From contig JAZNWL010000067.1 of NCBI GenBank assembly GCA_045593325.1, forward strand, positions 1,149 through 65,148: a DNA stretch of 64,000 nucleotides, read 5' to 3'. The stretch comes from Acutalibacteraceae bacterium (GTDB lineage Bacteria > Bacillota > Clostridia > Oscillospirales > Acutalibacteraceae). The position numbers and the translations under genes are program-made. Below are positions 4,537 to 32,077 of this stretch, in pieces; positions within the stretch are counted from its first letter, which is position 1; each line of letters starts with the position of its first letter. Below the pieces are notes generated by a model, which had not been told where the DNA came from, ran no database searches, and saw only the letters and a program-made list of their open reading frames with translations.

Positions 4537-4720
4537 AATATCTTCCTCCTAAAATATAGTGTGACCGAGCGCCCTGTATGTTGCTGCCCATATAACACAC
4601 CCAGTCTGCATTACGCATAATCAGTATATCACACTAAATTGGAAAAGTAAATAGGTTGTTCCCCTAAAATATGCAATTTTTTTTGTGAATTTTAACGAAA
4701 AGGAACTAAATATTACGATT

Positions 4721-6199: not shown

Positions 6200-6221
6200 A
6201 ACAAATTCCTCCTGAATCTTT

Positions 6222-9114: not shown

Positions 9115-9260
9115 GTAAAAAGCAAAATCCCGAGGAGAAAGCGTAATGTCGTTAGCGAAGTTTTTATTTTAACACAGATAAATATAATGTGTTAGAAGAA
9201 CCAGCATCGCATTTGTAAGTACAAATACAGTTGGGCAAAGCCCAAACCCACTAACAACAG

Positions 9261-9544: not shown

Positions 9545-10621
9545 CTACCCTTCAATGGGGAATTTGGTGATTTTTTTCACTGCGTATTTTAAAATTTGCA
9601 GAGCGTCTTTGGCATTGATGCCCTCTTTGCCATCCACTTCGGCGGCTTTTTGTTGGTCGGCGGTAAGGTCGGTCTTCCCAACAGCAAACTTCAATACTTC
9701 CAAGGCATCTTTGGCGTTTACAGCATCATCCCCGTTTACGTCGCCCAAGGTGATATCTGTGGGGGTGGGAACATCGGTATCAGTGGGGGTATCGGTATTG
9801 GTAACAGGATCATTGGGAATATCGGTATCGGTAACGGGATCTTGGGGTTGTTCGGGATTTTCAGGATCTTCAGGTTCAACCGGGTCGGCAGGAGCAACAA
9901 TGGTAGAGGTACCGTAGCCGTTCAGGTTGGCATTGTTCATAATGGAAGCAAAATCGTAATCTTTTACATAATCCAAAGCCACGGTGCCTTCCACGCCACT
10001 CACTTCACCGAAAGCATATTCGCAAATGTGATAGTAGCCGGTATAAGAGGGGTCGGCAATATCGGTGGCGGTAACCGAAGCATTGGCGGCTTCAGTAAAC
10101 CAGGTGTCATAAGCACCCAAAGCGGTCATAACGGTTTCATTATTATTGGCAAAATCAGCAGTTACAAACACGGTGAGATACAAACGACCGCCTTCGCTCA
10201 ATTTTTCCATGATTGCCAACACCAACTCTGCCACGTTGGCGGAAGCGGTTTCGGGAAGTTGCACACAAACGGGATATTCAAATTGTTTGCCGGCAATAAC
10301 TTTTAACATACCAACGGCTTCCCCTTGGGCTTCTTCCACTGTGGTGGCGTTCATTACAAGGTAAGCGCCCACTTCAACCCCTGCGGCTTTTGCACCGGCA
10401 TAGTTTTGTTCAAAAGCGGAATCAGCACCGCCGTTATAAGCGCACAACATGGCAAAATCGCCGTTTTCGTCTGCGGCAACGGCAGTCCAATCGATGTTTG
10501 CGGTTTCGGGAGCAACGGTGAAACCTTTGGCGGTTACGTTTACTTCGGCAGAGGCAGTCATGGTGAACAAGGCGGTGAAAGCCATAACCATTGCCAAAGT
10601 AATTGCTAATACTTTTTTCAT
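9545..10621 (-). CDS. Secreted GH25-like (lysozyme-fold) protein with a Pro/Thr/Asp linker and a C-terminal dockerin
   Basis: Signal peptide MKKVLAITLAMVMAFTALFTMTASA. FEQNYAGAKAAGVEVGAYLV..TTVEEAQGEA...GKQFEYPVCVQLPE and TVALDYVKDYDF resemble the GH25 muramidase pattern (by eye). The C-terminus reads GDVNGDDAVNAKDALEVLKFAVGK...EVDGKEGINAKDALQILKYAVKK. Confidence 0.75.
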   Translation of the reverse strand: MKKVLAITLAMVMAFTALFTMTASAEVNVTAKGFTVAPETANIDWTAVAADENGDFAMLCAYNGGADSAFEQNYAGAKAAGVEVGAYLVMNATTVEEAQGEAVGMLKVIAGKQFEYPVCVQLPETASANVAELVLAIMEKLSEGGRLYLTVFVTADFANNNETVMTALGAYDTWFTEAANASVTATDIADPSYTGYYHICEYAFGEVSGVEGTVALDYVKDYDFASIMNNANLNGYGTSTIVAPADPVEPEDPENPEQPQDPVTDTDIPNDPVTNTDTPTDTDVPTPTDITLGDVNGDDAVNAKDALEVLKFAVGKTDLTADQQKAAEVDGKEGINAKDALQILKYAVKKITKFPIEG

Positions 10622-10713: not shown

Positions 10714-11466
10714 TTAAGATTGAGGAAAATCGAATTGCGACAAGGAGTACTTTCGATACATATCCCCTACTGTGCATTTTCTCATCACCACGGTAGTAAC
10801 GGCGTTATCGCCTTTTTTATAATGAAACCCGTATACTTTATCAATGGCATGTTCAAAATCAATCACACAAGTACCATAAGGAACAATATCCAAATACACA
10901 CAATCCCCTTTAACAAAGGCGCCTTTATAATGGAGAGATCCTGTTGTCATCCCCGACATGCGATACCAGAGCACCAAACTATAGGTTTCAAAAAACGCTG
11001 CGTTGAACGTGGACTCCGCTTCCTCTTTATTGATATACCCTAAGTCCAAAAAATTTTGATATTCCTCATAAGTTTCAAAATGCCATGCTTGTTCGGTGGT
11101 ACAAATATCATCCTCTACTACTTTCCAGTAGGCAAAGGCAGAGTTAGAAGCAAAGGTAGTCTGTACCGCGCCCTGGTACAGTGGCGATTCTTTTCCCACT
11201 GCATACTTCAAAATGTTCAAGGCATCCACCGCATTCACTACGTCATCATCGTTGGTTTGGGCGGCATGCAAAGCACCAAGAGAGAGACTTTCTTTTTCCA
11301 CCGCATACCGTAGGATACACAAAGCATCTATGGCATTAACGGCACCGTCCAGGTTCACATCACCCAAATAGCCCTTGGTTACGGGGTCGTTTTTTTCTGC
11401 CGCCGAAACCCAAAGGGGCGCACAGAGCAATAACAGGGATAAGAACAAAGCGACCATTCTTTTCAT
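10714..11466 (-). CDS. Secreted protein with an N-terminal dockerin and a C-terminal domain of unknown function
   Basis: Start set to the ATG at 11466 (MKRMVALFLSLLLLCAPLWVSAAE) behind GGGGGA. Directly after the signal peptide: GDVNLDGAVNAIDALCILRYAV...TNDDDVVNAVDALNILKYAVGK. Confidence 0.75.
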   Translation of the reverse strand: MKRMVALFLSLLLLCAPLWVSAAEKNDPVTKGYLGDVNLDGAVNAIDALCILRYAVEKESLSLGALHAAQTNDDDVVNAVDALNILKYAVGKESPLYQGAVQTTFASNSAFAYWKVVEDDICTTEQAWHFETYEEYQNFLDLGYINKEEAESTFNAAFFETYSLVLWYRMSGMTTGSLHYKGAFVKGDCVYLDIVPYGTCVIDFEHAIDKVYGFHYKKGDNAVTTVVMRKCTVGDMYRKYSLSQFDFPQS

Positions 11467-18616: not shown

Positions 18617-21600
18617 ATGAAGTTTGGTTCGATCACCCGTCTGTTGATAATACTATTGGCATTGTGCCTTGCACTGCCAACGCCCTTGACGGCATTGGCA
18701 TCAGAATCCTCAAATAATTCGGTTGAACAGATTGAAGAAAGGAGCGGTTCCGCTGTGACCACTGCATCTACCACCGGTGCCATTGGTAAGTTAATGGGTA
18801 CCTATACCAAGTCCGGCAGCAAAATCACCCTGCAAGCCCAAAACGGGGTTATGACCTTGAATTTCTGCAAGGACAACATGGTGCGGGTACGCATTGCCCC
18901 CACCGAAAAGGATTTCCTGGCTGACAACCCCAACCTGCAAGCAGTTAAAAAATTTGACAGCGACTTTGATGCCGTTGCCTTGACGGTAAAAGATACCGAA
19001 ACTGCCCTGGAAATCAAGACCAACGGGTTGACCGTCTTGGTGAACAAAACCACCCTGGCTTTAACCTACAAAGACAAAAACGGTTCGGTGATCACCAAAA
19101 ACACCGCCACAAATCCCACGGGATTTGAAGGAGAAGGCAAGTGGGTAAACTTCCAACGGGATGCCGGTGGCATCGAGGAACACTTCTATGGCCTGGGCGC
19201 CGCACCCACCAGCGGTTTTACCTCGGTGGATTGGCGAAACAGATCTTATGATCTATGGATGCTGGACACCGGGGTTCACGCCATTACCCCCTTTTATTAT
19301 TCCACAGCGGGTTACGGTATTTACCTGAACAATTCTAACAAGGGTAAAATTTCTTTCAGAACCACCTGTGCCATTGAAATCGAAGGTGGAGAACTGGACT
19401 ATTACTTTATTTACGGCCCTTCGTTCAAAGACATTCAGTCAAACTTCGGAGAACTGTGCGGCACCATTGCCATGCCTCCTTTGTCTTCCTTAGGATTGAC
19501 CTATCGCGGGGCTTTGAATTTCACCGATGAACAGTTGATTTCGGCAATTAAAGATTTTCAGAATGCGGATATCGCGGTGGACACGGTGGGGGTTGAACCC
19601 GGTTGGCAAACCGCCACCTACCCCTGCACCTACGTGTGGAGCAACAAATTCCCCGATCCCGCCGAATTCATCAAATCCATTCATAATTTAGGCGTGAAGG
19701 TAAACCTGTGGGAACATCCCTTCGTTCACACCCAATCTCCCATTTATGATTCCATTAAGCCCTATTCTTTGACTTCCGAAACCTTGAGTGTAAATGCCGG
19801 CGATAAAAATTATGGTTTTCAGGGATTGGTTCCTGACTTCACCCTGCCTGACACCAAAGAGATCTATTGGCAGATCCACAATCAAAATCTGGCATCCATC
19901 GGGGTGGACGGTTTTAAAATCGACGAAACCGACAGTTGGGTTTGCGGCTCTGAATTGGACATTACCTTTCCCGGTGGTTTGTCTGCCAACGCCTATCACA
20001 ATATCATGGGAACGTTAACGGTCAACAACATGGCTGACCATTACAAGACGGAATACAACAAGCGAATTTTCACCTTTAGCCGAGGAAATTACACCGGCAT
20101 GCAACGGTATGCCACCACCGCCTATTCCGACACTTACGGCTTCAGTCAATATTTGATGACAGTAATTGCCCAATCCTATTCCGGCACCTATTTTACCCCG
20201 GAAGTACGGGGTGCTTCCACTTCCAATGATGTGGATTATATGCGCCGCACCCAGATGATGTTTATGACTCCCTTTGCCATGAACAACGAATGGATCGACG
20301 GACAAGACGTGTTGGACCGTTCCCAGGCAGTCATTGATAACTACAAAAAATACAACCACCTTTACTATTCTTTGATTCCCTATAAATACTCCCTGTTCTG
20401 GCAACAGCACACCAAGGGGCTTTCGGTGATTCGTGCCTTACCTATGGAATTTCAAGAAGACCAAGAAACCTATTCGGTGAAAAATCAATTCCTGTTGGGA
20501 GATTCTATTCTGGTTGCGCCCATCAACAGCACCAACCAAAAAGCTGCCCGCTCCATTTACCTTCCCGCCGGTGCCCATTGGGTAGATTACGAAACCGGAT
20601 ACGTTTATGAAGGAGGGCAATCCATCTCCTATACTGCCAATGCCGACGTTTTGCCCTTGTTTATTCGCAAAGGAGCAATTATTCCCACCGGGGCGGTAGG
20701 AAAAAACACCTCAGACAAAGGCGATACCACCATTACTTATGACCTATACCCCACCGATGCGAAAACCGATTTCACGTTGTACGAAGATGACGGTGAAAGT
20801 TACGATTACGAAAAAGGCAAATATGCCACCACCGAACTTTCTTTGGAAAAAAGCGCCAACACCATTACCTTTACTGCCGCTCAACGTACCGACGGTTATA
20901 AAATTGCCAACCGAAATGCCGTTGCCAAAGTTCATTACCGCACCAAGCCCTATGCCGTCGCCCTGAACGGAACCAATCTGGAACAAGTGGCATCCTTTGA
21001 CGCCTTTGAAAGTGCAACCGGCAACGTTTGGTTTTATAACGACGGCGAGAAAGATTCCGAAAAAATCGTATACGTAAAATACAACGATACCGGGAAAACA
21101 CAAACAGTCACCTTGAACGTTGGGGAAGAACCGGAACAAATCTTACCGGGAGAAACGCCCTCCACCGCCGTTCGCTTCGAATGTGAAGATACCGGCAACA
21201 AATTCAGAGGTACCACCACCAAATCGCTGGCATCCGCTTCCGGTGAAAAAGTGGTTGCCAACGTGGGCAACAATGGACGCAATCATTTCACCATGAATAT
21301 CACCATGGAAGAAGATGGTGTGTATCCGGTAGATATTGCCTTTGCTAACGGCGAACAACTCCGCACCTGTTACCTTGAGGTCAACCAAGAAGAAGGGCGC
21401 GAGTTCTATTTCTATTCCACCGGCGGCTTTGACAGAATCTCCACCATTTGCACCAATTTGCCTTTGAAAAAAGGTACCAACACCTTGCGGTTTTACACCC
21501 TGCAAGGAGAAGGTTGGGCACCTGATTTTGACTACATTGACGTGTATGAGGATTCCCCCGTACAACAAACAACAGGTGGAATATACCGCTTACCCTCACA

Positions 21601-22183
21601 AGGAACAGCCATAGGTACATTTGTGGAAGAAAACCCATTCGCCATGGAAAAACAAGTAATTAACGGCTTGGCAGGAGAAACCAAACAATTCCAATTTAAC
21701 GGGATTTTTTCTCAAAAGAATCAACCGGGCGAAGTTACCCTTTGCTATGCCAATATCGGTGACAAAAACGGTTCCCTTACCATTACGGTAAACGGGCAAT
21801 CTAAAGTATTGTACCTGCCTCCCACCCATTCTCCCCATCAATTCAGTAGAGTTTCGGTTGCCATGGATTTCGTAACCGGAGAAAACACCGTTACCTTAAC
21901 CGGGGATATCCAAACGGATTGTGATAACACGGGAATTACCGTAGAAGCCATTATGGTTCCTTCCATTGGATTTACCGATACACCATTCACCTACGGTGAC
22001 GTAAACCAAGATACTAAAATTGATGCCAAAGATGCCTTGCAAGTATTGAAATATGCGGTGGATCAAATTGATTTAACCGAAATCCAAAAGAAAGCCGCTA
22101 ATGTAAACAAGGATGATGCCATCAATGCCAAAGATGCCTTGGAAATTTTGAAAAAGTCGGTAAATAAACCCGCTTGTTTCTAA
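18617..22183 (+). CDS. Secreted GH31 alpha-glycosidase with two CBM-like modules and a C-terminal dockerin
   Basis: Signal peptide MKFGSITRLLIILLALCLALPTPLTALA. The GH31-like core includes GVDGFKIDETD. Two beta-sandwich-like segments follow after aa 850. The C-terminus reads GDVNQDTKIDAKDALQVLKYAV...NVNKDDAINAKDALEILKKSV. Confidence 0.85.
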   Translation: MKFGSITRLLIILLALCLALPTPLTALASESSNNSVEQIEERSGSAVTTASTTGAIGKLMGTYTKSGSKITLQAQNGVMTLNFCKDNMVRVRIAPTEKDFLADNPNLQAVKKFDSDFDAVALTVKDTETALEIKTNGLTVLVNKTTLALTYKDKNGSVITKNTATNPTGFEGEGKWVNFQRDAGGIEEHFYGLGAAPTSGFTSVDWRNRSYDLWMLDTGVHAITPFYYSTAGYGIYLNNSNKGKISFRTTCAIEIEGGELDYYFIYGPSFKDIQSNFGELCGTIAMPPLSSLGLTYRGALNFTDEQLISAIKDFQNADIAVDTVGVEPGWQTATYPCTYVWSNKFPDPAEFIKSIHNLGVKVNLWEHPFVHTQSPIYDSIKPYSLTSETLSVNAGDKNYGFQGLVPDFTLPDTKEIYWQIHNQNLASIGVDGFKIDETDSWVCGSELDITFPGGLSANAYHNIMGTLTVNNMADHYKTEYNKRIFTFSRGNYTGMQRYATTAYSDTYGFSQYLMTVIAQSYSGTYFTPEVRGASTSNDVDYMRRTQMMFMTPFAMNNEWIDGQDVLDRSQAVIDNYKKYNHLYYSLIPYKYSLFWQQHTKGLSVIRALPMEFQEDQETYSVKNQFLLGDSILVAPINSTNQKAARSIYLPAGAHWVDYETGYVYEGGQSISYTANADVLPLFIRKGAIIPTGAVGKNTSDKGDTTITYDLYPTDAKTDFTLYEDDGESYDYEKGKYATTELSLEKSANTITFTAAQRTDGYKIANRNAVAKVHYRTKPYAVALNGTNLEQVASFDAFESATGNVWFYNDGEKDSEKIVYVKYNDTGKTQTVTLNVGEEPEQILPGETPSTAVRFECEDTGNKFRGTTTKSLASASGEKVVANVGNNGRNHFTMNITMEEDGVYPVDIAFANGEQLRTCYLEVNQEEGREFYFYSTGGFDRISTICTNLPLKKGTNTLRFYTLQGEGWAPDFDYIDVYEDSPVQQTTGGIYRLPSQGTAIGTFVEENPFAMEKQVINGLAGETKQFQFNGIFSQKNQPGEVTLCYANIGDKNGSLTITVNGQSKVLYLPPTHSPHQFSRVSVAMDFVTGENTVTLTGDIQTDCDNTGITVEAIMVPSIGFTDTPFTYGDVNQDTKIDAKDALQVLKYAVDQIDLTEIQKKAANVNKDDAINAKDALEILKKSVNKPACF

Positions 22184-22242: not shown

Positions 22243-24453
22243 TTACGAAACGCCCTTTTCCACGCTTTTCACCGCGTGCATTTCCAACTGGGCTTCCACA
22301 AGCCCTTTGTAAATGCCCTTTTCTTTTTGCATCAATTCCTCATGACTGCCCATTTCGGCAATGGTATGCTCATCAATTACAAAAATACGGTCGCACCCTT
22401 TCAAGGTGGAAAGGCGGTGGGCAATGGCAAAGGTGGTTCTGCCTTTTTTCAGCCGTTCCAATGCTTTTTGAATCATAAATTCGCTTTCGGTATCCAAGCT
22501 GGAAGTGGCTTCATCCAAAATTAAAAGGCGGGGATTTACAAGCACCGCACGGGCAATGGCAATCCGTTGCCGTTCCCCACCCGAAAGCCGCTGGCCTTTT
22601 TCCCCTACGGGGGTTTGGTAACCGTAAGGAAACTTGCAAATAAAATCGTGTGCCCCCGCCACCTTGGCGGCGTGAATCACTTCTTCCACGGTGGCGTCCG
22701 GTTTGGCAAACCGAATGTTATCCAACACGGTGCCCGCAAACAAATAATTCTCCTGCAACACCACACCGATTTGGCTGTGCAAACAGGTGGTATCCCAAGT
22801 GCGAATGTCTTTCCCGTCTATGAGTATCTTCCCTTGATTCACATCATAAAGTCGCATAATCAGGTTGATCATGGTGGATTTTCCCGTCCCGGAAGCCCCT
22901 ACCAAACCAATGGATTCTCCCGCTTTTACGGTAAAGGAAATATCTTTCAGCACCGGCTCATACGCCCGATACCCAAAGGTTACGTTCTCAAAGGCAACGT
23001 CCCCTGTAATGGGTTGGGCAACAGGGGTTTCCTGTACCGAAAGGCTCTCGGTTTGCCCCATTACGTCATCAATACGGGCAAGGCTGATTCGCAAATCCAT
23101 CAACATTCGGGGAAGCCATGTAAACCACCCCAACGGGCCGAACATCATATTGGCATAGGAAATATACTGTGCCATTTGCCCCACGGTAAATCCCGTACCG
23201 CTCAGCACCTTCCATCCCCCTGCCAATAACACAAGGGAAGTGCCTAAGTTAAGCAGAAATCCCATAGTGGGATTAAACTTTGCCCAAAACACTTCACTTT
23301 TTTCCTGAATGGCGGCAAGGTTTCCCGCTTCTTGTTCAAATGCCTTGGTTTCTTTTTCTTCCTTGCCGAAGGTTTTTACCACCCGAATGCCCTGCAACAC
23401 ATCCTGCAGGTGACTGTTCAGGCGGTCGTCCCTGCGGCGAACCAAGGAAAACATACGATGCATCGGTCTGCGAAGGGTACGGAACATCACCCAAATGAAG
23501 GGCACAAATACCACCGAAATTAAGGTGAGCTTCCAATCCATATATAACATCATACCAAAAGCACCCAAAAAGGTGATAATATAGGTAAACATATTGGTGA
23601 ACACGTTTTCCATAAACCGCCGCACGGTGCCGGTATCCCCCACAATGCGGTTCATCAAATCTCCGGGTTTTCGGGAATCGTGGTAAGCAAGGGAAAGGGC
23701 TTGTACCTTTTGGAACAAAGCCGACCGCAACGCATTGCTGATTTTCGACCCTAACACCACCCCGTAATACCGTTTTACTAAATCGATTACCACAGCAAGC
23801 GCGGTGAATAAAGCAAGTACCCCCACAAAGGTGAGAATGGCACTCCAGCTCCCCTTTGCAGGGAGCAAATGTTCATCAATAAAAACCTGTTGCCATTTGG
23901 CGGTGTAAAGGGAAATGCCGGCCGCCGAAAGCATAAGAACCCAAATCACAACAAATCGGGGTAAAAAGGGCTTGCAAATCTCAAACAAGCGTTTGAGCCC
24001 TGCGGTTTTTCCTTCACAAACAGGGCAAGAGGACACCCCGTGCATCACCTTGCCGCATTTTTTGCAAACCGTTTCGGCTTCCCCGCTTTCCACAAGGCGA
24101 AAATCCCCTTCCATAAAACGGGTGATGCCTCGCACTACGTAGGAAAATTTAGCAAGCAAAGCGGTGGTAAAACGGCAAAGCACCAACGGCTCTCCGCCCA
24201 CGGTAAGGGTAACGTACCCAACCCCAATTCCCTTTTGGCATTCTGCCTTTTCCAGGGAAGAAAGAGGGTAAAACGCCGTTACGGTATCCCCCTCAAAAAT
24301 CCCCAAAGCGGTGTGGGATACCGCCAACCATCTGTCCTTTGCAAAAGTTCCTTGTTCATCCAGGTCAAAGGGAATACAATACACCATTTCGTTGGCATCG
24401 TTTTTCTTCCAATTTTCCATTTGCTTTGCCGATAGGTCAACACATAAATTCAC
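22243..24453 (-). CDS. ABC exporter half-transporter (TMD-NBD) with an N-terminal cytoplasmic domain and a zinc ribbon
   Basis: Walker A GASGTGKST, signature LSGGERQRIAIARA, Walker B LLILDEATSSLD. N-terminal extension of about 165 aa containing CKKCGKVMHGVSSCPVC. GTG start at 24453, 7 nt after GGGGAGGTG. Confidence 0.88.
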   Translation of the reverse strand: MNLCVDLSAKQMENWKKNDANEMVYCIPFDLDEQGTFAKDRWLAVSHTALGIFEGDTVTAFYPLSSLEKAECQKGIGVGYVTLTVGGEPLVLCRFTTALLAKFSYVVRGITRFMEGDFRLVESGEAETVCKKCGKVMHGVSSCPVCEGKTAGLKRLFEICKPFLPRFVVIWVLMLSAAGISLYTAKWQQVFIDEHLLPAKGSWSAILTFVGVLALFTALAVVIDLVKRYYGVVLGSKISNALRSALFQKVQALSLAYHDSRKPGDLMNRIVGDTGTVRRFMENVFTNMFTYIITFLGAFGMMLYMDWKLTLISVVFVPFIWVMFRTLRRPMHRMFSLVRRRDDRLNSHLQDVLQGIRVVKTFGKEEKETKAFEQEAGNLAAIQEKSEVFWAKFNPTMGFLLNLGTSLVLLAGGWKVLSGTGFTVGQMAQYISYANMMFGPLGWFTWLPRMLMDLRISLARIDDVMGQTESLSVQETPVAQPITGDVAFENVTFGYRAYEPVLKDISFTVKAGESIGLVGASGTGKSTMINLIMRLYDVNQGKILIDGKDIRTWDTTCLHSQIGVVLQENYLFAGTVLDNIRFAKPDATVEEVIHAAKVAGAHDFICKFPYGYQTPVGEKGQRLSGGERQRIAIARAVLVNPRLLILDEATSSLDTESEFMIQKALERLKKGRTTFAIAHRLSTLKGCDRIFVIDEHTIAEMGSHEELMQKEKGIYKGLVEAQLEMHAVKSVEKGVS

Positions 24454-24483
24454 GGGTTTTCACCTCCCCGAACCAAAAAACAG

Positions 24484-25023
24484 CTACATATACAAATCCA
24501 CCATCCGCAATTCTTTTGCGGAAAGCTTTGTTACGTCGGGCAATTCAAAACGGTTGCCGTCCACATCCGAAACAATTAAGCGGGTGCTTGAGAGTTTGGA
24601 AACCCCGTTTTGGTCCACCGTAAAACGGCATACCCCTTTATCGGTATTCACATACCAATAGGAATAGCCGTATTGTTCTTTAATTTCAAAAATCCTCTGA
24701 ATTTTGGGCATAAAATATCGCAAATTCAGTTGATATTCAATGGCTTTTACCGTTTCCTCATCAAATACATTCAAGCGGGCAATGATGCCGATTTCCCGAT
24801 TGTTTTCATCCTCCTGCCGCACCGAAAGATATTCGTTTTCCCCGCTAAACGGGAAGGTGCGGAAAAAGAGAACCCGCGGGTATTCCTTGCCACGGTAGTG
24901 CAAGGTAACAAATCCACCTGAAGTTTTGGTAAACACAGCATTTTGGGGTGTAAGAAAGCGGGTTTCCAAAAGGTCGTCTGCCAACTGTTCTTCCTGTTTT
25001 AAAACCGAATTGTTTTTCTTCAT
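24484..25023 (-). CDS. DUF1854-like protein (ABC-transporter-associated)
   Basis: 179 aa, wedged between the two ABC genes. FRTFPFS...IGII...LNLRYFMPKIQRIFEIKEQYGYSYWYVNTDKG matches my recollection of the DUF1854 pattern. Confidence 0.7.
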   Translation of the reverse strand: MKKNNSVLKQEEQLADDLLETRFLTPQNAVFTKTSGGFVTLHYRGKEYPRVLFFRTFPFSGENEYLSVRQEDENNREIGIIARLNVFDEETVKAIEYQLNLRYFMPKIQRIFEIKEQYGYSYWYVNTDKGVCRFTVDQNGVSKLSSTRLIVSDVDGNRFELPDVTKLSAKELRMVDLYM

Positions 25024-25034
25024 TTTCCGTCCCC

Positions 25035-27377
25035 CTATTCAATCACAATATTTTCTTCCTGTTGCCCTTTTAAGGAAAGGGCTTTGGTTTGCAGTTCCAC
25101 CAATTTATAATAAATCCCTTGATTGTTTATCAATTCCCGGTGGGTGCCGTATTCGGCAACCTTGCCTTCCTCCAGCACCAACAGTTTGTGTGCCCCCCGC
25201 AAGGTGGAAAGGCGGTGGGCAATGGAAATGGTGGTACGCCCTTGCACCAATTTATCCAAAGCATTTTGAATGTTCCGTTCGGTGGCGGTATCCACCGAAG
25301 CGGTGGCTTCGTCTAAAATCAAAATGGGACTGTTTGCCAGAATGGCACGGGCAACCGAAAGCCGTTGCCGCTCCCCACCCGAAAGCTGCCGCCCCGAAGA
25401 ACCGATTACCGTTTCGTAACCGTCGGGCATTTGGCAAATAAAATCGTGTGCCCCTGCGTGAATGGCGGCTTTGATGATATCCTCACGGGTAGCATTGGGG
25501 CAGGCATAGGCAATGTTTTCTGCCACCGTGCCCATAAACACGTAACTGTCTTGAGAAACGGTGGAAACACATTGATGTAAGGTTTCCATGGAAAGGTCTT
25601 TTAGGGGAATCCCGTCAATGGTAATTTCCCCGCTGTCCACGTCATACAGCCGAGAAATTAAACTCACAAGGGTGGATTTCCCTACCCCCGATTTTCCTAC
25701 AATGCCCAGCATTTCTCCTGCGGGAATATCCACCGAAATGTTGTGCAAAACAGGTTTCCCCGCTTGGTAGGAAAAGGTAACGTTATTTATGGAAACATCC
25801 CCCCGAATGGTATCCAAGGAAACGGGATTTTTCTTTTCTTCCACTTGGGGTTTGGTATCCATAATTTCAAAAATTCTGCCTGCGGCATTCATGGAAGAGG
25901 TTCCCCAACGAAACAGGTCGGTCATAGAACCCAGCAGTTGGGAAAGCATTCCCACGTAGCTTAAAAACACCGCCAACATCCCGTAGGACATCCCCGTGTG
26001 CCCGCCTTTGATAATCAAATAGGCACCCAAGCCCCATACCCCCAAATTCAGCAGGTTGCCACCCACCGCAGAAAGGGCAAAATAACGGTTTTCATAAGCC
26101 ACCACCGAAACCTCGGTTTCCTGCATCCGATTGTTTTCTTTTTCAAATTCAAAAACGGCAGCTTGCTCCTGCCCAAAGGCTTTGATCACCCGACTGCCCG
26201 TGAGGGTATCGTTCAGCACCCCGCTCATATTGCGGTTTGCTCGGTGCCGTTTGCCGTGCAAATGCCATAACATGGGTTGCAGCTTGGTGGAAATGAAGGT
26301 AAGCACCGGCACCACCGCCACCGCCAACACCGCCAACTGCCAGTTTAAGGAGAACATCATAACCACCAATGCAGTGGCGTGAATGGTGTTGCCGAATACG
26401 TAGGGAAGGCCGTCAATAAAAAATCCCGTAACCTCTCCCGCATCCCCCAACACACGGGTCATCAGTCCTCCTGTTTTGCGGTCGGTAAAAAAGGAAAGAG
26501 AAAGCCGCCGCAAGGCGGAAAACACATCCTCTTTGATTCTTCGTACCACACGGGGCACAATTTTCCCCACCAAGGCAAACTGAAATATGCTGATAATCCA
26601 GGTGACAATGCGAACCGCCAAAAAGGAGCCCATTACCAATAACAAAAGGGTAAGAAAATCCCCTCCCGCCAAGGACCAAACCCCCGTAAAGGTGGATTTT
26701 TTCCCCAACACGTCATCAAAATACACCGCCCCTGAAAGATAAGGCATAATCACGCTAAAAACCGCACTGAACAGAATCAAAAGGGAAACCCCCGCCATTT
26801 TCCATTTGTGGGGTTTAAAATAGGAAAGGGTTCGCACAAATAAACTCCGATGGTCGGTGCATTTGGGGCAAATTTTCCGTTCTTTATCCAAGTAAGGTGC
26901 ACCGCATATTTCGCAAAAATCACTGTGTTCTTTGTCTTTGGTGTCCTCTTCTTTCAGTTCTTCCCCTTTTTTCACCTTGTCCGCAAGGGATGCCATTCGA
27001 TTAGCATCGGTGTTCAGCCCACTTGTAAAGCAAAATAAAGGTTGTTCCCCCGCCGCGGTTTTGATGCAAAGCATCCCTCCGCCAAGGAAAGACTGTATCC
27101 AAATTTTTTCAATATCCTGCAAAGCAAATTCGGTAACCGAAGAAACCGTTCCATCCTCTTGAATGGGCTTGTTTTTCCCAATATACCCTCCGTACACTTT
27201 TGCGGGAATACGGGTTTGCCCCTGTGCCAAAACCAGCTTCTCTTTGGTGAGCAACAAATAAAAGTCGGCAAATTCCCCATTGGAATTCAAATCCCCCTTG
27301 CAGGCATACAAAACGTCTTCATCGGGAAAGGATTTCTTTTTCAATTTTTCATAGTCCTTAGAACCGAAAAAACCCAT
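25035..27377 (-). CDS. ABC exporter half-transporter (TMD-NBD) with an N-terminal cytoplasmic domain and a zinc ribbon
   Basis: Walker A GKSGVGKST, LSGGERQRLSVARA, ILILDEATASVD. N-terminal extension of about 190 aa with CEICGAPYLDKERKICPKC. Start set to the ATG at 27377 (MGFFGSK), 8 nt after AAAGGAG. Confidence 0.88.
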   Translation of the reverse strand: MGFFGSKDYEKLKKKSFPDEDVLYACKGDLNSNGEFADFYLLLTKEKLVLAQGQTRIPAKVYGGYIGKNKPIQEDGTVSSVTEFALQDIEKIWIQSFLGGGMLCIKTAAGEQPLFCFTSGLNTDANRMASLADKVKKGEELKEEDTKDKEHSDFCEICGAPYLDKERKICPKCTDHRSLFVRTLSYFKPHKWKMAGVSLLILFSAVFSVIMPYLSGAVYFDDVLGKKSTFTGVWSLAGGDFLTLLLLVMGSFLAVRIVTWIISIFQFALVGKIVPRVVRRIKEDVFSALRRLSLSFFTDRKTGGLMTRVLGDAGEVTGFFIDGLPYVFGNTIHATALVVMMFSLNWQLAVLAVAVVPVLTFISTKLQPMLWHLHGKRHRANRNMSGVLNDTLTGSRVIKAFGQEQAAVFEFEKENNRMQETEVSVVAYENRYFALSAVGGNLLNLGVWGLGAYLIIKGGHTGMSYGMLAVFLSYVGMLSQLLGSMTDLFRWGTSSMNAAGRIFEIMDTKPQVEEKKNPVSLDTIRGDVSINNVTFSYQAGKPVLHNISVDIPAGEMLGIVGKSGVGKSTLVSLISRLYDVDSGEITIDGIPLKDLSMETLHQCVSTVSQDSYVFMGTVAENIAYACPNATREDIIKAAIHAGAHDFICQMPDGYETVIGSSGRQLSGGERQRLSVARAILANSPILILDEATASVDTATERNIQNALDKLVQGRTTISIAHRLSTLRGAHKLLVLEEGKVAEYGTHRELINNQGIYYKLVELQTKALSLKGQQEENIVIE

Positions 27378-27413
27378 ATTTGTCACTCCTTTTTATAAAT
27401 CTTATTTTTCTTC

Positions 27414-27442
27414 GTTATAACATACCGAAAAAATGTTGTCAA
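27414..27442 (-). promoter_or_regulatory. Promoter of the ABC/DUF1854 operon
   Basis: On the minus strand: TTGACA (27437-27442), a 17-nt spacer, then TATAAC (27414-27419), 37 nt upstream of the ATG. Confidence 0.55.
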
Positions 27443-27452
27443 CCTAAAATCC

Positions 27453-27488
27453 TTGTCTGATATAAAAAAATTATTATCTAAAATTCAA
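27453..27488 (-). promoter_or_regulatory. Candidate LytTR-type operator, copy 1 (two half-sites 21 nt apart)
   Basis: The minus strand reads TTGAATTTTAGATAA-N15-AGACAA and ends 10 nt upstream of the -35. The 15-mer is identical to 29257-29271. Confidence 0.5.
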
Positions 27489-27598
27489 CTGCATTTCCAA
27501 AATAAAAAACAAATATTTACTGTAATCGTTTCTTTCCAACGCGGCAAAAACGGTGGTGTTTTGTATTGATAAAAGGCTTTTTCGGCTATTCTGCTGAT

Positions 27599-28198
27599 TT
27601 ATTCAAAATTGATAGGCATTTTTACAAGGGTATGGCTACAATGGGAGCATTCATCTTGCTGAATATTATTATAAGAACCGCACACGGCACATTGAACTCG
27701 AAAGTCCGATGAAGCGGGTAACACAATGGTGTGTGCCGTACCTGAAAGGTGAAACACCTTGTCCCCTATCCGATACTTTTCAATATTAGGCGACAATTTT
27801 TCTTGTTTACTATACACTTCTGCCCGCTCGTAATATACTTGGCGGGAAATACGTTTTCCATTGATAAGCCGTATATCCAAAATAATGGTGTTCCTTCGAG
27901 GCTGTGTCCAAGGTCTTTTAAATCTCCAATCCATATCCACGCCTGTTTTGATGGTAATATCGGTCACTTCACCCAAGAAACTATTGTCGGTTATTTGGGG
28001 AAACACCTTTGCAAAAACAACCCCCAATAAAAACAAAAGAAGAGCAGCAATAGATGTTTTTTCGGCGGGGGTGTTCAATTCCAAAGAACAGTAAATCCCG
28101 GTGGATACCCCTACAACCAACGCCAACAGAAGCATTCGTTTAATTCTTTGTTTCACCGAAATGTTTCTTAAATCAGACGGCAACAGTTTCTTGTTCAT
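27599..28198 (-). CDS. Two-TM membrane protein with a cytoplasmic beta-rich domain and a C-terminal zinc ribbon
   Basis: Start set to the ATG at 28198 (MNKKLLPSD) behind GAGGTGG. Two hydrophobic helices near the N-terminus. C-terminal CAVCGSYNNIQQDECSHC. No family recognised. Confidence 0.65.
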   Translation of the reverse strand: MNKKLLPSDLRNISVKQRIKRMLLLALVVGVSTGIYCSLELNTPAEKTSIAALLLFLLGVVFAKVFPQITDNSFLGEVTDITIKTGVDMDWRFKRPWTQPRRNTIILDIRLINGKRISRQVYYERAEVYSKQEKLSPNIEKYRIGDKVFHLSGTAHTIVLPASSDFRVQCAVCGSYNNIQQDECSHCSHTLVKMPINFE

Positions 28199-28261
28199 AA
28201 TCTTCCACCTCTTTTTCAATTATCATCCAATTCCCATGCAATTGTCAAGAATTGAGGCCAA

Positions 28262-28290
28262 AAACGGGCAGTTGTGATAACCGCCCGTTT
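28262..28290 (-). terminator. Terminator after 28328..29101
   Basis: Stem aaacgggc / gcccgttt. On the minus strand it reads gcccgtttttgg. Confidence 0.5.
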
Positions 28291-28327
28291 CCCTTCTGCT
28301 TGTGATTTAAAAAAACTTGCCTATTGG

Positions 28328-29101
28328 TTACTCAGGGAAAATCTTATCTAACGGCCATTCCACAACCCGTTTCCCTACTGCCGATTGCAATGCCCACAAA
28401 GCATCCACCGCATTGATTTCTCCATCAGCATTTACATCATCCTTACGATTGATGGAGCCTTCTTCTTTCCCAACGGCAGCTCTTAAAATATGCAGTGCCG
28501 ATACAGCGGTGTATTTGTAAATGTAACTTGTGCCGGTATAAATTTCGGTTACATCATTGCCAAGGTCGGTAGCGGTAACGTCGGTTGGGGTCTCAACATC
28601 CGGCACAGGGATTTCATCTTCAAACCACAGAATAAAAGCAACCCGTTCCTGTTCTGCGAGGCGAAGAATTTCGGCTTTGGTGGTTCTAAAGGTTACCGAA
28701 ACACCTACAATTACCATATCTTCGGTTTTTTCCAAATCAACCGCTTCAAAAAACTCCTTGTAGAAAGTTTCTTCTGCTTCTTTTTGGAATTGTTTTTCTA
28801 GCGCAATCAATTGGTTTACTTGTTCGGTATATTTAGGGCTGCCGGTTAAAGCCAACCGATAATTCTCTTCCCCCATAACAGCAATTGCTTTTGCTTCATA
28901 GTCTTCCTGAGAAAGTTGAGGAAGGTCTCCGATTGCGTACACTGCAATTTCGGCGGTATCGGTATCGTTCATAGTTTCCAAATGCGTCCTAAAATCTTCG
29001 CCTAATTTATCGGTATGTTCTTCTGCAAAAACAACGCCGAAACTCATAGAAATTGCCAATACCAAGCCTAACAATAGCATTTGTTTGAAAATCTTCTTCA
29101 T
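28328..29101 (-). CDS. Secreted protein with a degenerate (half) dockerin at the C-terminus
   Basis: Start at the ATG at 29101 (MKKIFKQMLLLGLVLAISMSFGVVFAEE). The C-terminus reads TAVSALHILRAAVGKEE...DDVNADGEINAVDALWALQSAVGK. The second repeat is canonical. The first keeps the helix but lacks the Ca loop. Confidence 0.75.
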   Translation of the reverse strand: MKKIFKQMLLLGLVLAISMSFGVVFAEEHTDKLGEDFRTHLETMNDTDTAEIAVYAIGDLPQLSQEDYEAKAIAVMGEENYRLALTGSPKYTEQVNQLIALEKQFQKEAEETFYKEFFEAVDLEKTEDMVIVGVSVTFRTTKAEILRLAEQERVAFILWFEDEIPVPDVETPTDVTATDLGNDVTEIYTGTSYIYKYTAVSALHILRAAVGKEEGSINRKDDVNADGEINAVDALWALQSAVGKRVVEWPLDKIFPE

Positions 29102-29197
29102 AAATATCACGCTCCTTAAATCAATTGAAAAGGTTCATTTTCTACTACTTAAACACAAAAGGAGGGAAAAATACTCACGATAATTAGAATTTTTTTC

Positions 29198-29206
29198 ATT
29201 ATATCA
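29198..29206 (-). promoter_or_regulatory. Extended -10 (TGaTATAAT) in front of 28328..29101, with no recognisable -35
   Basis: The minus strand reads TGATATAAT at 29206-29198, about 97 nt upstream of the ATG. It lies 32 nt downstream of the proximal operator half-site. Confidence 0.45.
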
Positions 29207-29235
29207 TAAAAAACCGTGAAATCATTCGCCATTAT

Positions 29236-29271
29236 TTATCTCTGATGAAATTTTATTTATCTAAAATTCAA
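29236..29271 (-). promoter_or_regulatory. Candidate LytTR-type operator, copy 2
   Basis: The minus strand reads TTGAATTTTAGATAA-N15-AGATAA, that is AGATAAATAA twice with a 21-nt period. It lies about 200 nt from the divergent LytTR regulator gene. Confidence 0.5.
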
Positions 29272-29407
29272 TGATACTTCTAAAAATACTCCACATCGGA
29301 ATTCTCCTCCTTGCAGTTTAGATGATGCCCACTTTCATTTAATATGCAAATTTGTGTGCTGTCAATAGATATTGCCTATTCGTTGCCTCAAACGTCCTAT
29401 TCGATAT

Positions 29408-29436
29408 TTGACAATAAATTTTTAACCTTGTATACT
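29408..29436 (+). promoter_or_regulatory. Promoter of the LytTR two-component operon
   Basis: TTGACA (29408-29413), a 17-nt spacer, then TATACT (29431-29436), 32 nt upstream of the TTG start. Confidence 0.55.
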
Positions 29437-29468
29437 TTATATAATGAAACCAACAAGGAGGATTTGCT

Positions 29469-30179
29469 TTGAACATTGCCATTTGCGACGATAACATAAC
29501 CCACCGAGATGCGGTGATTAACAACATACAACAAAACAACCCAACCGATGCGACCCTAACCATTTCCCAATTTGAAAATGCAGAAGCTCTTTTGCAAGCA
29601 TATAGGAAAGGGAACCGATATGATTTGATTTTTTTGGATGTGGAAATGGGTAAGGTGAACGGCATTGATGCTGCTATGGAAATTCGCAAATGCCAACCCA
29701 ATGTATTGCTTGTTTTTATTTCGAGCCACCCTCAATATGCCATTCCCGCTTACGATTGCCAGCCCTTATATTTCATTACCAAACCCATTAACTCCGCTCG
29801 ATTTTCTCATATTTTTGCCAAGGTGATGGAACGGTATAAACAATTGCACCAATATTACGTCATTCAAAACAAAGGGCAAATCATTAAACTGTTAATTGAA
29901 GAGATTACCTATGTGGAAGTGTTCCGAAAACACGTTATTTTTCACACTGCCAAGGAAACCTATGAAACCACCGGTACCACCTTGCAAAAAACCGTGGAGT
30001 CTCTTTTACCTTATGGGTTTTGTCAAGTGCATCAAAGTATACTGGTAAATATGGAACACATCAAAGCCATTGAACAATATGATATTATTTTAGACGACGA
30101 TACCACCGTACCCATCAGTGTGCGAAAAAAATCCCAAGTATTAAAAACCTTTGCAGAATATATTGAAAGGACGATGTAA
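29469..30179 (+). CDS. LytTR-family response regulator (REC plus LytTR DNA-binding domain)
   Basis: TTG start 6 nt after AGGAGGA. The receiver domain reads MNIAICDD...DLIFLDVEM. The C-terminal LytTR-like segment includes KLLIEEITYVEV, HTAKETYE and FCQVHQSILVNMEHI. Confidence 0.88.
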   Translation: MNIAICDDNITHRDAVINNIQQNNPTDATLTISQFENAEALLQAYRKGNRYDLIFLDVEMGKVNGIDAAMEIRKCQPNVLLVFISSHPQYAIPAYDCQPLYFITKPINSARFSHIFAKVMERYKQLHQYYVIQNKGQIIKLLIEEITYVEVFRKHVIFHTAKETYETTGTTLQKTVESLLPYGFCQVHQSILVNMEHIKAIEQYDIILDDDTTVPISVRKKSQVLKTFAEYIERTM

Positions 30180-30181
30180 TC

Positions 30182-31462
30182 ATGAGTGATTTGTTATACA
30201 ACGCAATCAATGGCGGATTGGAAGTTGTTTTAATTTGTTTGTTTTTTCAAACCTTTGTTCACCCCATCGCGTGGCAAGGCAGAAAATGGACTTTGGGATG
30301 TATTGGTTGTTTATTTGTTGGTCTTCTTGCCATTCCCAAGCCTACCCCTGTAAACTTTGTGCTTATACTCCTTTTAATATTTTTTATTTCCATGCTATAC
30401 AAAATGAAATGGTATCAACATATTTTCTTTAGCGTGATTATTGTTACCCTGTATTCCTTGGCAGAGGTAATTGTAGTTGTTATTAGCAGCATGATATTAA
30501 ACGTGGAACTGGTTCTTCTTAAAACCGGCAACTATTTATTATTTGGTATGTTGGCGTCCAAATTAATTATTTTAATCATGATTCTTATTTTAAAATTCGG
30601 ACGTCATAAATTACCCTTAAAACATTTGGGGAGTGTTTGGGGATATGTGATTTTTGTTTTAATTACTTCCATTGTTTCCATTTTTCTTGTGCTTGACTAT
30701 ATGCACCTAATTCTTGGTAACACCACAAAACAGTTTGTAACCCTTTTGGCGGTTTCCTTGATTATTGTAATGAACATTATGTTGTTTTATATCATTGATA
30801 AAATCAACGAACACTTTGAAACCAAACACAATTTGGACACCGCCAAAGAATTGATAGAAAGCCAAAAAGCAACCTACAAAACCTTATATGAAAATCAACA
30901 GGAAATCCGAAAAGTTCGTCATGATTTAAAAAATTCCATGGTGGGAATTTTATACGAATTGGAAAACAAAAAAACAGATGATGCCATAAGTCGGATGAAA
31001 GGAATTCTTGAATTATTCGAAGAACAACGCTTCTCCTTTTCAGGGAACAACATTATTGATACGTTGATGAATTTCAAGAAAAAAGAAGCAGCTAACTACA
31101 ACATTCAATGGGAAGAATCCATTCATTTATCGGAATCATTGAACATTGACCCCATAGATTTTTCGGTTTTATTGGGCAATGCTTTAGACAATGCCATAGA
31201 AGCCACTGCAAAGCAAACCACGCACCCAAAAACCATTTTTGTATCCATGGCTTATAAGCAAGAGAATTTGTTAATGGTCATAAAAAATCCGGTGGACGCC
31301 CTCATTGACACAACCAATTTACAATCCACCAAACAAAATAAAACCCATCACGGTTTTGGCATATTGCAAATGAAACAGTTAGCCCAAAAGTATAACGGCG
31401 AAGTGTTTTTGGAATGCACTAACGAACAGTTTAAAACCTCTATTCTTATTGGGAAAATTTAA
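30182..31462 (+). CDS. AgrC/ComD-like (HPK10-type) membrane sensor histidine kinase
   Basis: 6-7 N-terminal TM segments, H-box VRHDLKNSM, N-box LLGNALDNAIEAT and G-box HGFGILQMKQLAQKYNGE. The start lies 2 nt after the RR stop. Confidence 0.88.
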   Translation: MSDLLYNAINGGLEVVLICLFFQTFVHPIAWQGRKWTLGCIGCLFVGLLAIPKPTPVNFVLILLLIFFISMLYKMKWYQHIFFSVIIVTLYSLAEVIVVVISSMILNVELVLLKTGNYLLFGMLASKLIILIMILILKFGRHKLPLKHLGSVWGYVIFVLITSIVSIFLVLDYMHLILGNTTKQFVTLLAVSLIIVMNIMLFYIIDKINEHFETKHNLDTAKELIESQKATYKTLYENQQEIRKVRHDLKNSMVGILYELENKKTDDAISRMKGILELFEEQRFSFSGNNIIDTLMNFKKKEAANYNIQWEESIHLSESLNIDPIDFSVLLGNALDNAIEATAKQTTHPKTIFVSMAYKQENLLMVIKNPVDALIDTTNLQSTKQNKTHHGFGILQMKQLAQKYNGEVFLECTNEQFKTSILIGKI

Positions 31463-31487
31463 AGACGAATTTCCAATAAAACACCAC

Positions 31488-31516
31488 TTGCACACCCTTT
31501 GTCCTTTTCATACAAT
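31488..31516 (+). promoter_or_regulatory. Promoter of the MecA-like gene
   Basis: TTGCAC (31488-31493), a 17-nt spacer, then TACAAT (31511-31516). This places the TSS downstream of the ORF-track start at 31499. Confidence 0.45.
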
Positions 31517-31546
31517 GATAGTACACAGAAAGGACGGGGATGCCCT

Positions 31547-32077
31547 TTGCATATTCAAAAAGAAGCGGGGAACAGCTTTATGGTGGAGTTAACCGCAACC
31601 GAATTACAGCAATATCACTTAACATACAGTCAACTGCATTTGCAAAACAAAAAAACCAAATGTTTATTGCAGTCCCTACTTTGCAACGCCGGTAAAATGG
31701 TGGGATTTTGTAAGGGAGAGGGGAAATTATTGATAGAAGTTTATCCCGCGCCTGCACAGGGGTGCACCATTTATTTCACCAACCTACCCTTTGGGGACAA
31801 ACGGTATCGGAAAATCTCCCCCTACGTTTTCCGCTTTGAAACCTGCGATGATTTATTGCAAGGGGCGGCGTGTTTCGGGGAACATCATCCCCAAAGCGAA
31901 GCCTACCGTTACGGAGAACACTACCTGTTGATACTACATAGTGCGCCCGTACACGGTCTGAAAGAATTCGCGAAACCATTGCCTTCTTCCAAACCTTTTC
32001 TTGCTCACATACGGGAACACGGGCAGTTGCTTTGTAAACCCAACGCAGTGGAGAGGTTGCAGGGAAAAACCATATAA
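31547..32077 (+). CDS. MecA-family adaptor protein (short form)
   Basis: With the TTG start at 31547 (6 nt after AGGACGGGGA) the N-terminus (M)HIQKEAGNSFMVELTATELQQYHLTY parallels MecA MEIERINEHTVKFYMSYGDIEDRGF. C-terminal YRYGEHYLLIL and IREHGQLLCKPNAVERL also look MecA-like. ATG at 31580 is an alternative start. Confidence 0.6.
   Translation: MHIQKEAGNSFMVELTATELQQYHLTYSQLHLQNKKTKCLLQSLLCNAGKMVGFCKGEGKLLIEVYPAPAQGCTIYFTNLPFGDKRYRKISPYVFRFETCDDLLQGAACFGEHHPQSEAYRYGEHYLLILHSAPVHGLKEFAKPLPSSKPFLAHIREHGQLLCKPNAVERLQGKTI

Follow-up and report, generated by a model that had tools for sequence, protein, structure and literature searches.

Do an exporter operon and an agr-type receptor that lie side by side in a genome of the Clostridia belong to one regulatory module? 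The question arises from a 64,000-nt stretch of DNA (64 kb, positions 1,149–65,148 of contig JAZNWL010000067.1 from an Acutalibacteraceae bacterium; hereafter the window, to which all unprefixed coordinates refer). Here an operon for two ATP-binding cassette (ABC) half-transporters and a DUF1854 protein has as its neighbors the genes for a Zn-ribbon membrane protein, a secreted dockerin-type protein, and a two-component system (TCS) formed by an AgrC-type histidine kinase and a response regulator with a LytTR domain. A first-pass annotation had read the five neighboring transcription units as a single signal-responsive module, in which the TCS would control both the exporter operon and the secreted protein through a shared operator-like element. 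Comparative genomics shows instead a separate conserved operon and a variable island, and we hold it probable (about 0.7) that the region is composed of two independent units, the core exporter operon (22243–27442) standing beside a strain-variable island of the orphan-agr type (27501–31468). Both units belong to kinds that are already known, namely DUF1854-associated ABC exporters and orphan agr-type receptors.

The exporter operon is encoded on the minus strand and comprises three genes. ABC1 (25035–27377, 780 aa, ATG at 27377) and ABC2 (22243–24453, 736 aa) are half-transporters with an additional N-terminal domain (approximately residues 1–190 and 1–165, respectively), which is followed in ABC2 by a six-helix exporter-type transmembrane domain and a nucleotide-binding domain. 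Between both ABC genes lies the gene for a 179-aa DUF1854 protein (24484–25023), a soluble cytoplasmic accessory subunit that matches PF08909 in Pfam at 115.9 bits. Both half-transporters match ABC_membrane and ABC_tran in Pfam (1.5e-44 and 7.4e-34 for ABC2), and their translations contain the Walker A motifs GKSGVGKST (ABC1) and GASGTGKST (ABC2), the Walker B motifs ILILDE and LLILDE, and, in each of them, the signature LSGGERQR and the H-loop AHRLST. The nucleotide-binding sites of ABC1 and ABC2 are thus both canonical and intact, and the location of two paralogous ABC genes on either side of DUF1854 implies a heterodimer. The operon (GC content 48%) is preceded by P1, a sigma-70-type core promoter read from the sequence (TTGACA-17-TATAAC, 27414–27442, minus strand), whose block of -35 element, -10 element and ribosome-binding site (RBS) is kept in all eight aligned related loci, whether the TCS is present or not. 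All eight open reading frames (ORFs) of the first-pass annotation were confirmed by the ORF listing, and the start codons of ABC1, the secreted protein (29101) and the Zn-ribbon membrane protein (28198) have proper RBSs and agree with the gene calls in relatives.

When the representative genomes of GTDB were scanned with an alignment of DUF1854, at least 545 hits were confirmed, the best 80 of which were taken as DUF1854 loci; all of them belong to Clostridia, including Lachnospiraceae, Oscillospiraceae, Ruminococcaceae and other groups. The gene order ABC(N-domain)-DUF1854-ABC(N-domain) is found in 80 of these 80 other Clostridia species loci, wherever the contig allows. The flanking regions (approximately 0.8 Mb in total, with at least 5 kb on both sides beyond the operon in 38 loci) contain no conserved neighbor gene of the operon when all flanking ORFs of the 80 loci are clustered: operon genes and antisense artefacts aside, the largest real flanking family is a tRNA synthetase, present in 8 loci. 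The flanks were also searched for TCS genes by phmmer and then by custom hidden Markov models for the catalytic domain of the kinase and for receiver and LytTR domains. Within 10 kb of the operon, a LytTR regulator together with a kinase was detected in 1 of the 80 loci (L067), where the pair lies more than 8 kb downstream and is not adjacent; isolated LytTR-only ORFs are present near the operon in L046 and L080. LytTR TCS genes and DUF1854-ABC operons are thus not generally associated. Judged from gene context, the ABC/DUF1854 operon stands alone, and its control by the TCS is not supported.

Among the closest relatives of the window, the two units are neighbors only in some lineages. The conserved neighbor of the operon on the far side of the island is the gene for a MecA-like adaptor (31488–32077, plus strand; Pfam MecA, 1e-12), which holds this position in the closest clade only (L001–L006 and L088–L090) and not in the other 79 species loci. 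MecA directly adjoins the ABC operon, with nothing between them, in L002 and L003 (DUF1854 91% identical), and it directly adjoins the operon also in L005 and L006 (61–62%). L001 (91%) has the cargo genes and lacks the TCS. In L004 (75%), L088/L089, and L090, the genes for MecA, the kinase and the regulator are placed as in the window, and differing sets of dockerin-bearing genes lie between the regulator and the ABC operon. The MecA promoter (TGCACA-16-TACAAT, 31489–31516, plus strand) and the ABC core promoter form the divergent pair that the core locus had originally. Since the TTG codon at 31499, from which the listed MecA-like ORF begins, lies inside the MecA promoter, the real start of MecA is probably the ATG at 31580 (165 aa, as in L088 and L090).

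Alignment of the junctions with the empty site of L002 delimits the island as a 3,968-bp segment (27501–31468) carrying the Zn-ribbon membrane protein, the half-dockerin protein, the regulator, and the kinase. It is bounded by an 8-bp direct repeat, TTGGAAAT, at 27493–27500 and 31469–31476 (both on the minus strand), of which the L002 site holds a single copy; the similarity runs on imperfectly for approximately 10 bp more, as TGTTTT(TT)AT(TT)TGGAAAT. The GC content of the island is 37.5%, vs. 46.5% for the window. The whole island is missing from L002 and L003, and only its TCS part is missing from L001; no mobility gene (transposase or integrase) was found within it. The L002 site can be either an ancestral empty site or the outcome of a deletion between the 8-bp repeats, and the repeat itself either a target duplication or a substrate of microhomology deletion. 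All TCS-bearing loci share the junction on the MecA side, which favors one acquisition in a common ancestor, with losses and exchange of cargo later on.

The regulator (29469–30179, plus strand, 236 aa) is of the AgrA type, with a receiver domain (Response_reg PF00072, 4.1e-15) and a LytTR domain (PF04397, 4.3e-18). The AgrC-type kinase (30182–31462, plus strand, 426 aa; HATPase_c_5 PF14501, 2.6e-21) has six or seven hydrophobic or transmembrane segments within residues 1–205, and its gene is directly followed by the MecA promoter. Both genes lie behind a predicted promoter that matches the consensus at 11 of 12 positions (TTGACA-17-TATACT, 29408–29436, plus strand). Among 8,000 candidates scored, 1,013 kinase homologues were found at E<=1e-10; a metagenome scan with the kinase returned two short contigs only. 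Positional orthologues of the kinase in L088/L089, L090, and L004 are 82–90% and 59% identical to it, and the regulator identities are 93% (L088), 84% (L090), and 61% (L004), with approximately 50% to the regulators of full agr operons. The next tier of kinase homologues (P0062, P0070, and P0073 of L091–L093, 45–50% identity) resides in complete agrA-agrC-agrB-agrD operons, in which AgrB (PF04647) and then a 49-aa typical AgrD-like ORF come after the kinase gene (e.g., ...SACILYYHQPKVPAAMNQYKK); taken together, kinase and regulator of these operons are 45–52% identical to the window pair. A tblastn search of the 64-kb window, in which AgrB and AgrD were each represented by three sequences, had no match with E under 0.7, and Pfam showed no C39 peptidase domain, in agreement with the first-pass annotation. 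Because its homologues occur in full agr operons and no AgrBD is present in the window, the pair is best described as an orphan AgrC/AgrA-type receptor.

Its closest described analogues are VirS/VirR of Clostridium perfringens and RgaS/RgaR of Clostridioides difficile, which likewise combine an AgrC-like polytopic kinase with a LytTR regulator, have no agrBD at the locus, and act on a small set of promoters in which a pair of direct repeats, spaced by 21 bp, immediately precedes the -35 element. Unlike the adjacent genes of the window, those of RgaS and RgaR are unlinked; moreover, the targets of the VirSR and RgaSR systems are toxins or sporulation factors, whereas the cargo here consists of dockerin-bearing secreted proteins and the pair itself resides on a strain-variable island. 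RgaS does not respond to AgrD1 (PMC10602386).

The regulator-kinase promoter is abutted by a perfect direct repeat, CGAATAGG-N13-CGAATAGG (DR-A, 29375–29403, minus strand), which we consider a candidate operator of the AgrA type. On its other side, DR-A is followed after 9 nt by a promoter that points toward the secreted-protein gene (-35 TTGACA at 29360–29365, a 17-nt spacer, and TTAAAT at 29337–29342; 29337–29403 together with DR-A, minus strand). This divergent arrangement resembles that of P2/P3 in the Staphylococcus aureus agr paradigm and is probably autoregulated. Even with 3 mismatches allowed, the window contains no other match to DR-A, and the ABC promoter thus lacks a copy; the half-site of DR-A may differ from the VirR-box sequence. 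DR-A is kept, at the same distance from the -35 element, in seven loci, four with the orphan-type system (the window, L088/L089, L090, where it reads CGATTGGG...CGAATAGG, and L004) and three with a complete agr operon (L091–L093). In each of the latter three, DR-A-N9-TTGACA-17-TTAAA(A/T) is found between agrC and agrB, so that the promoter which would drive a secreted dockerin protein in the window would drive agrBD there, as expected for the autoinduction promoter upstream of agrBD. L091 contains a second promoter of the same type (9100–9167, minus strand; CGATGAGG-N13-CGAACGGG-N9-TTGACA-17-TAAATT), facing two dockerin genes (556 and 419 aa) that are divergent from agrA. The half-sites of DR-A, at approximately -73/-52 relative to the predicted transcription start, match the G-72/G-51 positions needed for RgaR in C. 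difficile (PMC10602386). Its conservation, the architecture of the agrBD promoters, and the RgaR-like positions together suggest that DR-A is the operator of this regulator family. The part of the first-pass annotation in which the TCS controls the divergent secreted-protein gene is therefore plausible, with DR-A as the site; the same does not hold for the ABC/DUF1854 operon.

Two further candidates were considered between the DR-A promoter and the cargo gene and rejected. Small ORFs located after the promoter (MKVGII and MWSIFRSIIEF, the latter with a strong RBS) are not retained as pheromone genes, since their frame is broken in L088 by a 1-nt deletion and no counterpart exists in L004. A structured leader or small RNA between the DR-A promoter and the second cargo promoter (P2) has no Rfam match, and its folding energy is like that of shuffled sequences (z -0.45). 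In the complete agr operons, a strong hairpin with a T-run lies immediately after the DR-A promoter between agrC and agrB (L091 11282–11380, L092 11287–11385, L093 approximately 11273–11375); with its 5' arm at about the predicted start, it could stop read-through from agrAC and be skipped by AgrA-dependent transcripts. L004 has an (AT)n microsatellite of approximately 13 units (2765–2790) between the regulator and the cargo, at the place where P2 and the repeat described next are found in the window.

The operator-like element that had been noticed in front of the ABC and cargo promoters is real as an exact 15-mer, but it is part of a longer repeat and not an element that tracks the regulator family. 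The 15-mer, TTGAATTTTAGATAA, occurs exactly twice in the window (27474–27488 and 29257–29271, both on the minus strand) and is the longest k-mer common to the ABC and cargo promoter regions. It belongs to the upstream half of a direct repeat with a 21-bp phase, AGAYAAnnnn-N11-RGAYAA (DR-B). At P1, DR-B reads AGATAATAAT-N11-AGACAAGGAT (27449–27479, minus strand, holding the 3' part of the 15-mer at 27474–27488), with predicted half-sites at approximately -72/-51. At P2, where the cargo gene has a promoter of the extended -10 type (TGaTATAAT, -10 at 29198–29203; 29198–29262 with DR-B upstream, minus strand), it reads AGATAAATAA-N11-AGATAAATAA (29232–29262, minus strand, holding the 3' part of the 15-mer at 29257–29271). 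The degenerate pattern has 2 matches in the window vs. 0.04 expected, the pattern and hence this statistic having been derived post hoc. As a target-site duplication of the island, TTGAATTTTAGATAA was rejected, since its second copy is internal to the island and the true flanking repeat is TTGGAAAT.

The DR-B half-sites at P2, the -10 element, and part of the leader are kept in L088, L090, and the TCS-less L001, and the sequence between them diverges; this is a genuine phylogenetic footprint, and DR-B is a real cis-element. It persists in L001 although this locus lost the regulator, the kinase and DR-A. At P1, DR-B is found only in the window and in the TCS-less L002 and L003, whereas in the TCS-bearing L088, L090, and L004 the same ABC core promoter is preceded by different sequences. 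DR-B has 3–5 of 8 positions in common with DR-A. In this comparison of TCS presence with DR-B at the ABC promoter, which rests on 9 distinct loci, the repeat does not track the TCS. The first-pass annotation had itself named the absence of motif and synteny from related genomes as the observation that would make the adjacency fortuitous, and that is largely what the related genomes show. As a separate observation, L001 (7560–7600) and L090 (approximately 4590–4640) have AACAAATT-N8-AACAAATT in place of DR-B before the ABC core promoter; the region upstream of the -35 element is swapped between strains at this promoter and the core is constant.

The nearest named relatives of the exporter are families associated with cyanophycin metabolism. 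The best NCBIfam match of both half-transporters is NF052233, "cyanophycin metabolism-associated ABC transporter," at 508 bits for ABC1 (residues 14–774) and 495 bits for ABC2 (residues 19–726), the cut-off being 880 bits in each case. These matches span model positions 22–751 of 766, the N-domain included (E 1e-148 to 1e-152). The DUF1854 protein matches NF052234, "cyanophycin metabolism-associated DUF1854 family protein," at 79 bits (cut-off 150). On these scores, ABC1, ABC2, and the DUF1854 protein are taken to be homologues but not equivalogs of NF052233 and NF052234. In two beta-proteobacteria, DUF1854 and its ABC transporter are cofit with cphA/cphA', and export of an amino-acid polymer has been proposed for the system (Price et al., bioRxiv 10.1101/072470), the only literature found on PF08909/DUF1854. 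Now that NCBIfam names related families and a function has been proposed in beta-proteobacteria, the first-pass annotation is out of date in listing DUF1854 and the ABC pairs it accompanies as lacking an assigned function. The operon studied here shares with the cyanophycin-associated system a full-length alignment that includes the N-domain, a DUF1854 partner in the operon, and an exporter-type transmembrane and nucleotide-binding domain. It differs in having two paralogous ABC genes vs. the single ABC-like gene of that system, in scores far under the equivalog cut-offs, and in the lack of cphA/cphA' nearby: no cyanophycin synthetase (cphA) match was obtained among the large window ORFs scanned with Pfam, and clustering of flanking ORFs showed cphA/cphA' to be absent as a conserved neighbor in the 80 Clostridia loci.

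The N-terminal domains of ABC1 and ABC2 are cytoplasmic, cover approximately 165–195 residues, and end in a CxxC...CxxC motif. They are mutually homologous (hhalign probability 99.9%, E 1e-32), and an AlphaFold2 model and its PDB matches agree with their annotation as PH-like domains with a Zn ribbon. The model of the ABC1 N-domain (mean predicted local distance difference test, pLDDT, 87.8; built on 37 sequences) has seven strands (E27–121), a long capping helix (H122–139), and then the CxxC...CxxC knuckles. In a Foldseek comparison with the PDB, its top 50 matches are overwhelmingly PH or PH-like domains (probability approximately 1.0, E 1e-3 to 2e-2), with TM scores of 0.5–0.64 against isolated PH domains; by sequence, the N-domain has no match among solved structures. 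The N-domain is thus predicted to have a PH-like fold, the likeness being at the level of the fold only. An exhaustive phmmer search of representative sequences, used here since a word-indexed search gave two fragments only, yielded 158 representative clusters of the N-domain family, with the domain N-terminal in every protein. The AlphaFold2 model of the DUF1854 protein (pLDDT 89) has two beta-rich lobes with a helix after each; no PDB match was obtained by sequence, and by fold none with E<0.04. No homology between the N-domains and DUF1854 was detected (hhalign probability approximately 1%). A further analogy is offered by the peptidase-containing ABC transporters, since there too an extra N-terminal cytoplasmic domain on an exporter-fold half-transporter could dock the cargo. 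The present N-domain differs from theirs in being PH-like with a Zn ribbon and not a C39 peptidase, and no gene for a leader-peptide substrate is present.

Several observations weigh against the reading preferred here. The TCS still lies beside the ABC operon in several lineages (the window, L088/L089, L090, and L004), in which its divergence roughly parallels that of DUF1854, and its regulator is the sole response regulator in the 64-kb window. DR-B has a LytTR-like geometry, its 10-bp half-sites with a 21-bp phase ending 4–6 bp before the -35 position, and this geometry and the exact shared 15-mer together make co-regulation of P1 and P2 plausible in this strain. Finally, the analogy with polymer export is weak for Clostridia because the window lacks cphA. 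Some of these points would suit a strain-restricted arrangement, in which the local AgrA-like regulator binds DR-A as well as DR-B at P2 and P1 and co-induces the dockerin protein and the exporter as a lineage-specific rewiring: the 15-mer and the phased repeat stand at equivalent positions (approximately -72/-51) of both promoters, the half-sites at P2 show footprint conservation, and the window encodes no other response regulator. We nevertheless consider it unlikely, given the limited resemblance of DR-B (AGAYAA...) to DR-A, the retention of DR-B at P2 in L001 despite the loss of the TCS, its distribution at P1 (in TCS-less L002 and L003, not in TCS-bearing L088, L090, and L004), and the post hoc nature of the DR-B statistic; the ABC promoter, furthermore, combines a perfect -35 element with a good -10 element, unlike typical activator-dependent promoters.

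The persistence of DR-B under apparent purifying selection without an adjacent TCS (at P2 in L001, at P1 in L002 and L003) would be accounted for if the repeat were bound by another factor encoded elsewhere, such as the AgrA of a full agr locus or another LytTR regulator, which would act independently of the adjacent TCS and co-regulate the cargo at P2 and also, though only in certain strains, the ABC operon. Also in favor of such a factor, the complete agr operon L091 and the TCS-bearing L088 come from the same sample with similar coverage. Yet the DR-B pattern has no match in L091–L093 or L004, no candidate factor has been identified, and the conservation in L001–L003 could also reflect a recent loss of the TCS, so that we regard this explanation, too, as improbable. 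Systems of the HPK10/LytTR type often adjoin peptide exporters, and ABC1 and ABC2 have, alongside NF052233, sub-threshold NCBIfam matches to bacteriocin and NHLP exporters; from this one might read the island as a peptide-pheromone or bacteriocin export and immunity module, with the ABC pair exporting the peptide that the kinase senses. The comparative data contradict such a module, which we hold very improbable: ABC1 and ABC2 have no Pfam match to a C39 peptidase domain, there is no double-glycine peptide or AgrB/AgrD, and the frame of the small ORFs after the DR-A promoter is not maintained in relatives. Moreover, 80 species keep the ABC operon without any partner of this sort, and the family that matches its half-transporters best in NCBIfam, along their full length, is another one.

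Under the preferred reading of two independent units, the kinase would sense a cyclic autoinducing peptide from another source, be it a full agr locus of its own genome or neighboring cells, and would phosphorylate the regulator. The phosphorylated regulator would then bind CGAATAGG-N13-CGAATAGG and activate the divergent promoters of its own operon and of the cargo gene for the secreted dockerin-type protein. Independently of the TCS, the ABC/DUF1854 operon would be expressed from its own strong, near-consensus promoter. By homology to the beta-proteobacterial ABC/DUF1854 system associated with cyanophycin synthetase, its product may move some cytoplasmic product outward, the PH-like/Zn-ribbon domains and DUF1854 possibly forming a cytoplasmic platform for substrate recruitment or gating of the exporter.

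The two cargo genes of the island are both located on the minus strand. The secreted protein (28328–29101, 257 aa, ATG at 29101) has a signal peptide with an N-terminal hydrophobic segment and a degenerate dockerin repeat followed by a single canonical one; the Dockerin_1 match in Pfam is sub-threshold (16.9 bits, cut-off 22.9). Its orthologues are found in L088 and L090, and its C-terminal part of approximately 100 aa is common to proteins of 417–422 aa in L004 and L001. A hairpin with a T-run resembling an intrinsic terminator (28262–28290, minus strand, seen as an inverted repeat) follows the gene and splits its transcript from the downstream units. The Zn-ribbon membrane protein (27599–28198, 199 aa, ATG at 28198), with two transmembrane helices and a C-terminal CxxC...CxxC, has no Pfam or NCBIfam match; its orthologues reside on the islands of L001, L004, and L090, and a promoter scan placed its promoter, TTGACA-18-GATAAT, at 28219–28248.

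Elsewhere in the window, dockerin proteins are encoded at 18617–22183, 4760–6232, 9545–10621, and 47477–49396. They include a 1,188-aa GH31 protein that has both a full dockerin and a CBM13-like module, a dockerin-bearing LRR_5 protein of the BspA type, and two proteins known by their dockerin only, and from them the organism is evidently a cellulosome- or amylosome-type uncultured member of Clostridia. The closest genome matches are metagenome-assembled genomes from rumen and hindgut. Besides the MecA-like adaptor, the window encodes a ComEC-type competence protein (PF03772, 44209–46443), and two adjacent large ORFs (88–2112 and 2164–3597; 674 and 477 aa) have no Pfam match at E<=1e-5.

The analysis removes a false lead: the adjacency of a LytTR TCS and a DUF1854/ABC operon reflects a variable island beside a core operon and not a conserved regulatory design. 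The arrangement ABC(PH+Zn)-DUF1854-ABC(PH+Zn) emerges as an exporter operon that is self-contained and very widespread among Clostridia of gut and rumen. It is doubtful that in this strain DR-B is bound by the AgrA-like regulator of the island or by a paralogous AgrA, which would put the exporter under peptide quorum sensing together with dockerin surface proteins; if true, this would be a case of lineage-specific regulatory capture and would provide the first physiological handle on a DUF1854 exporter in Firmicutes. No literature linking agr to dockerin proteins was found. Complete as well as orphan agr-type systems of this uncultured clade have conserved AgrA-box promoters that face genes for dockerin-bearing secreted proteins, and the recurrence of such promoters suggests that cellulosome- or amylosome-associated surface components may be under quorum control.

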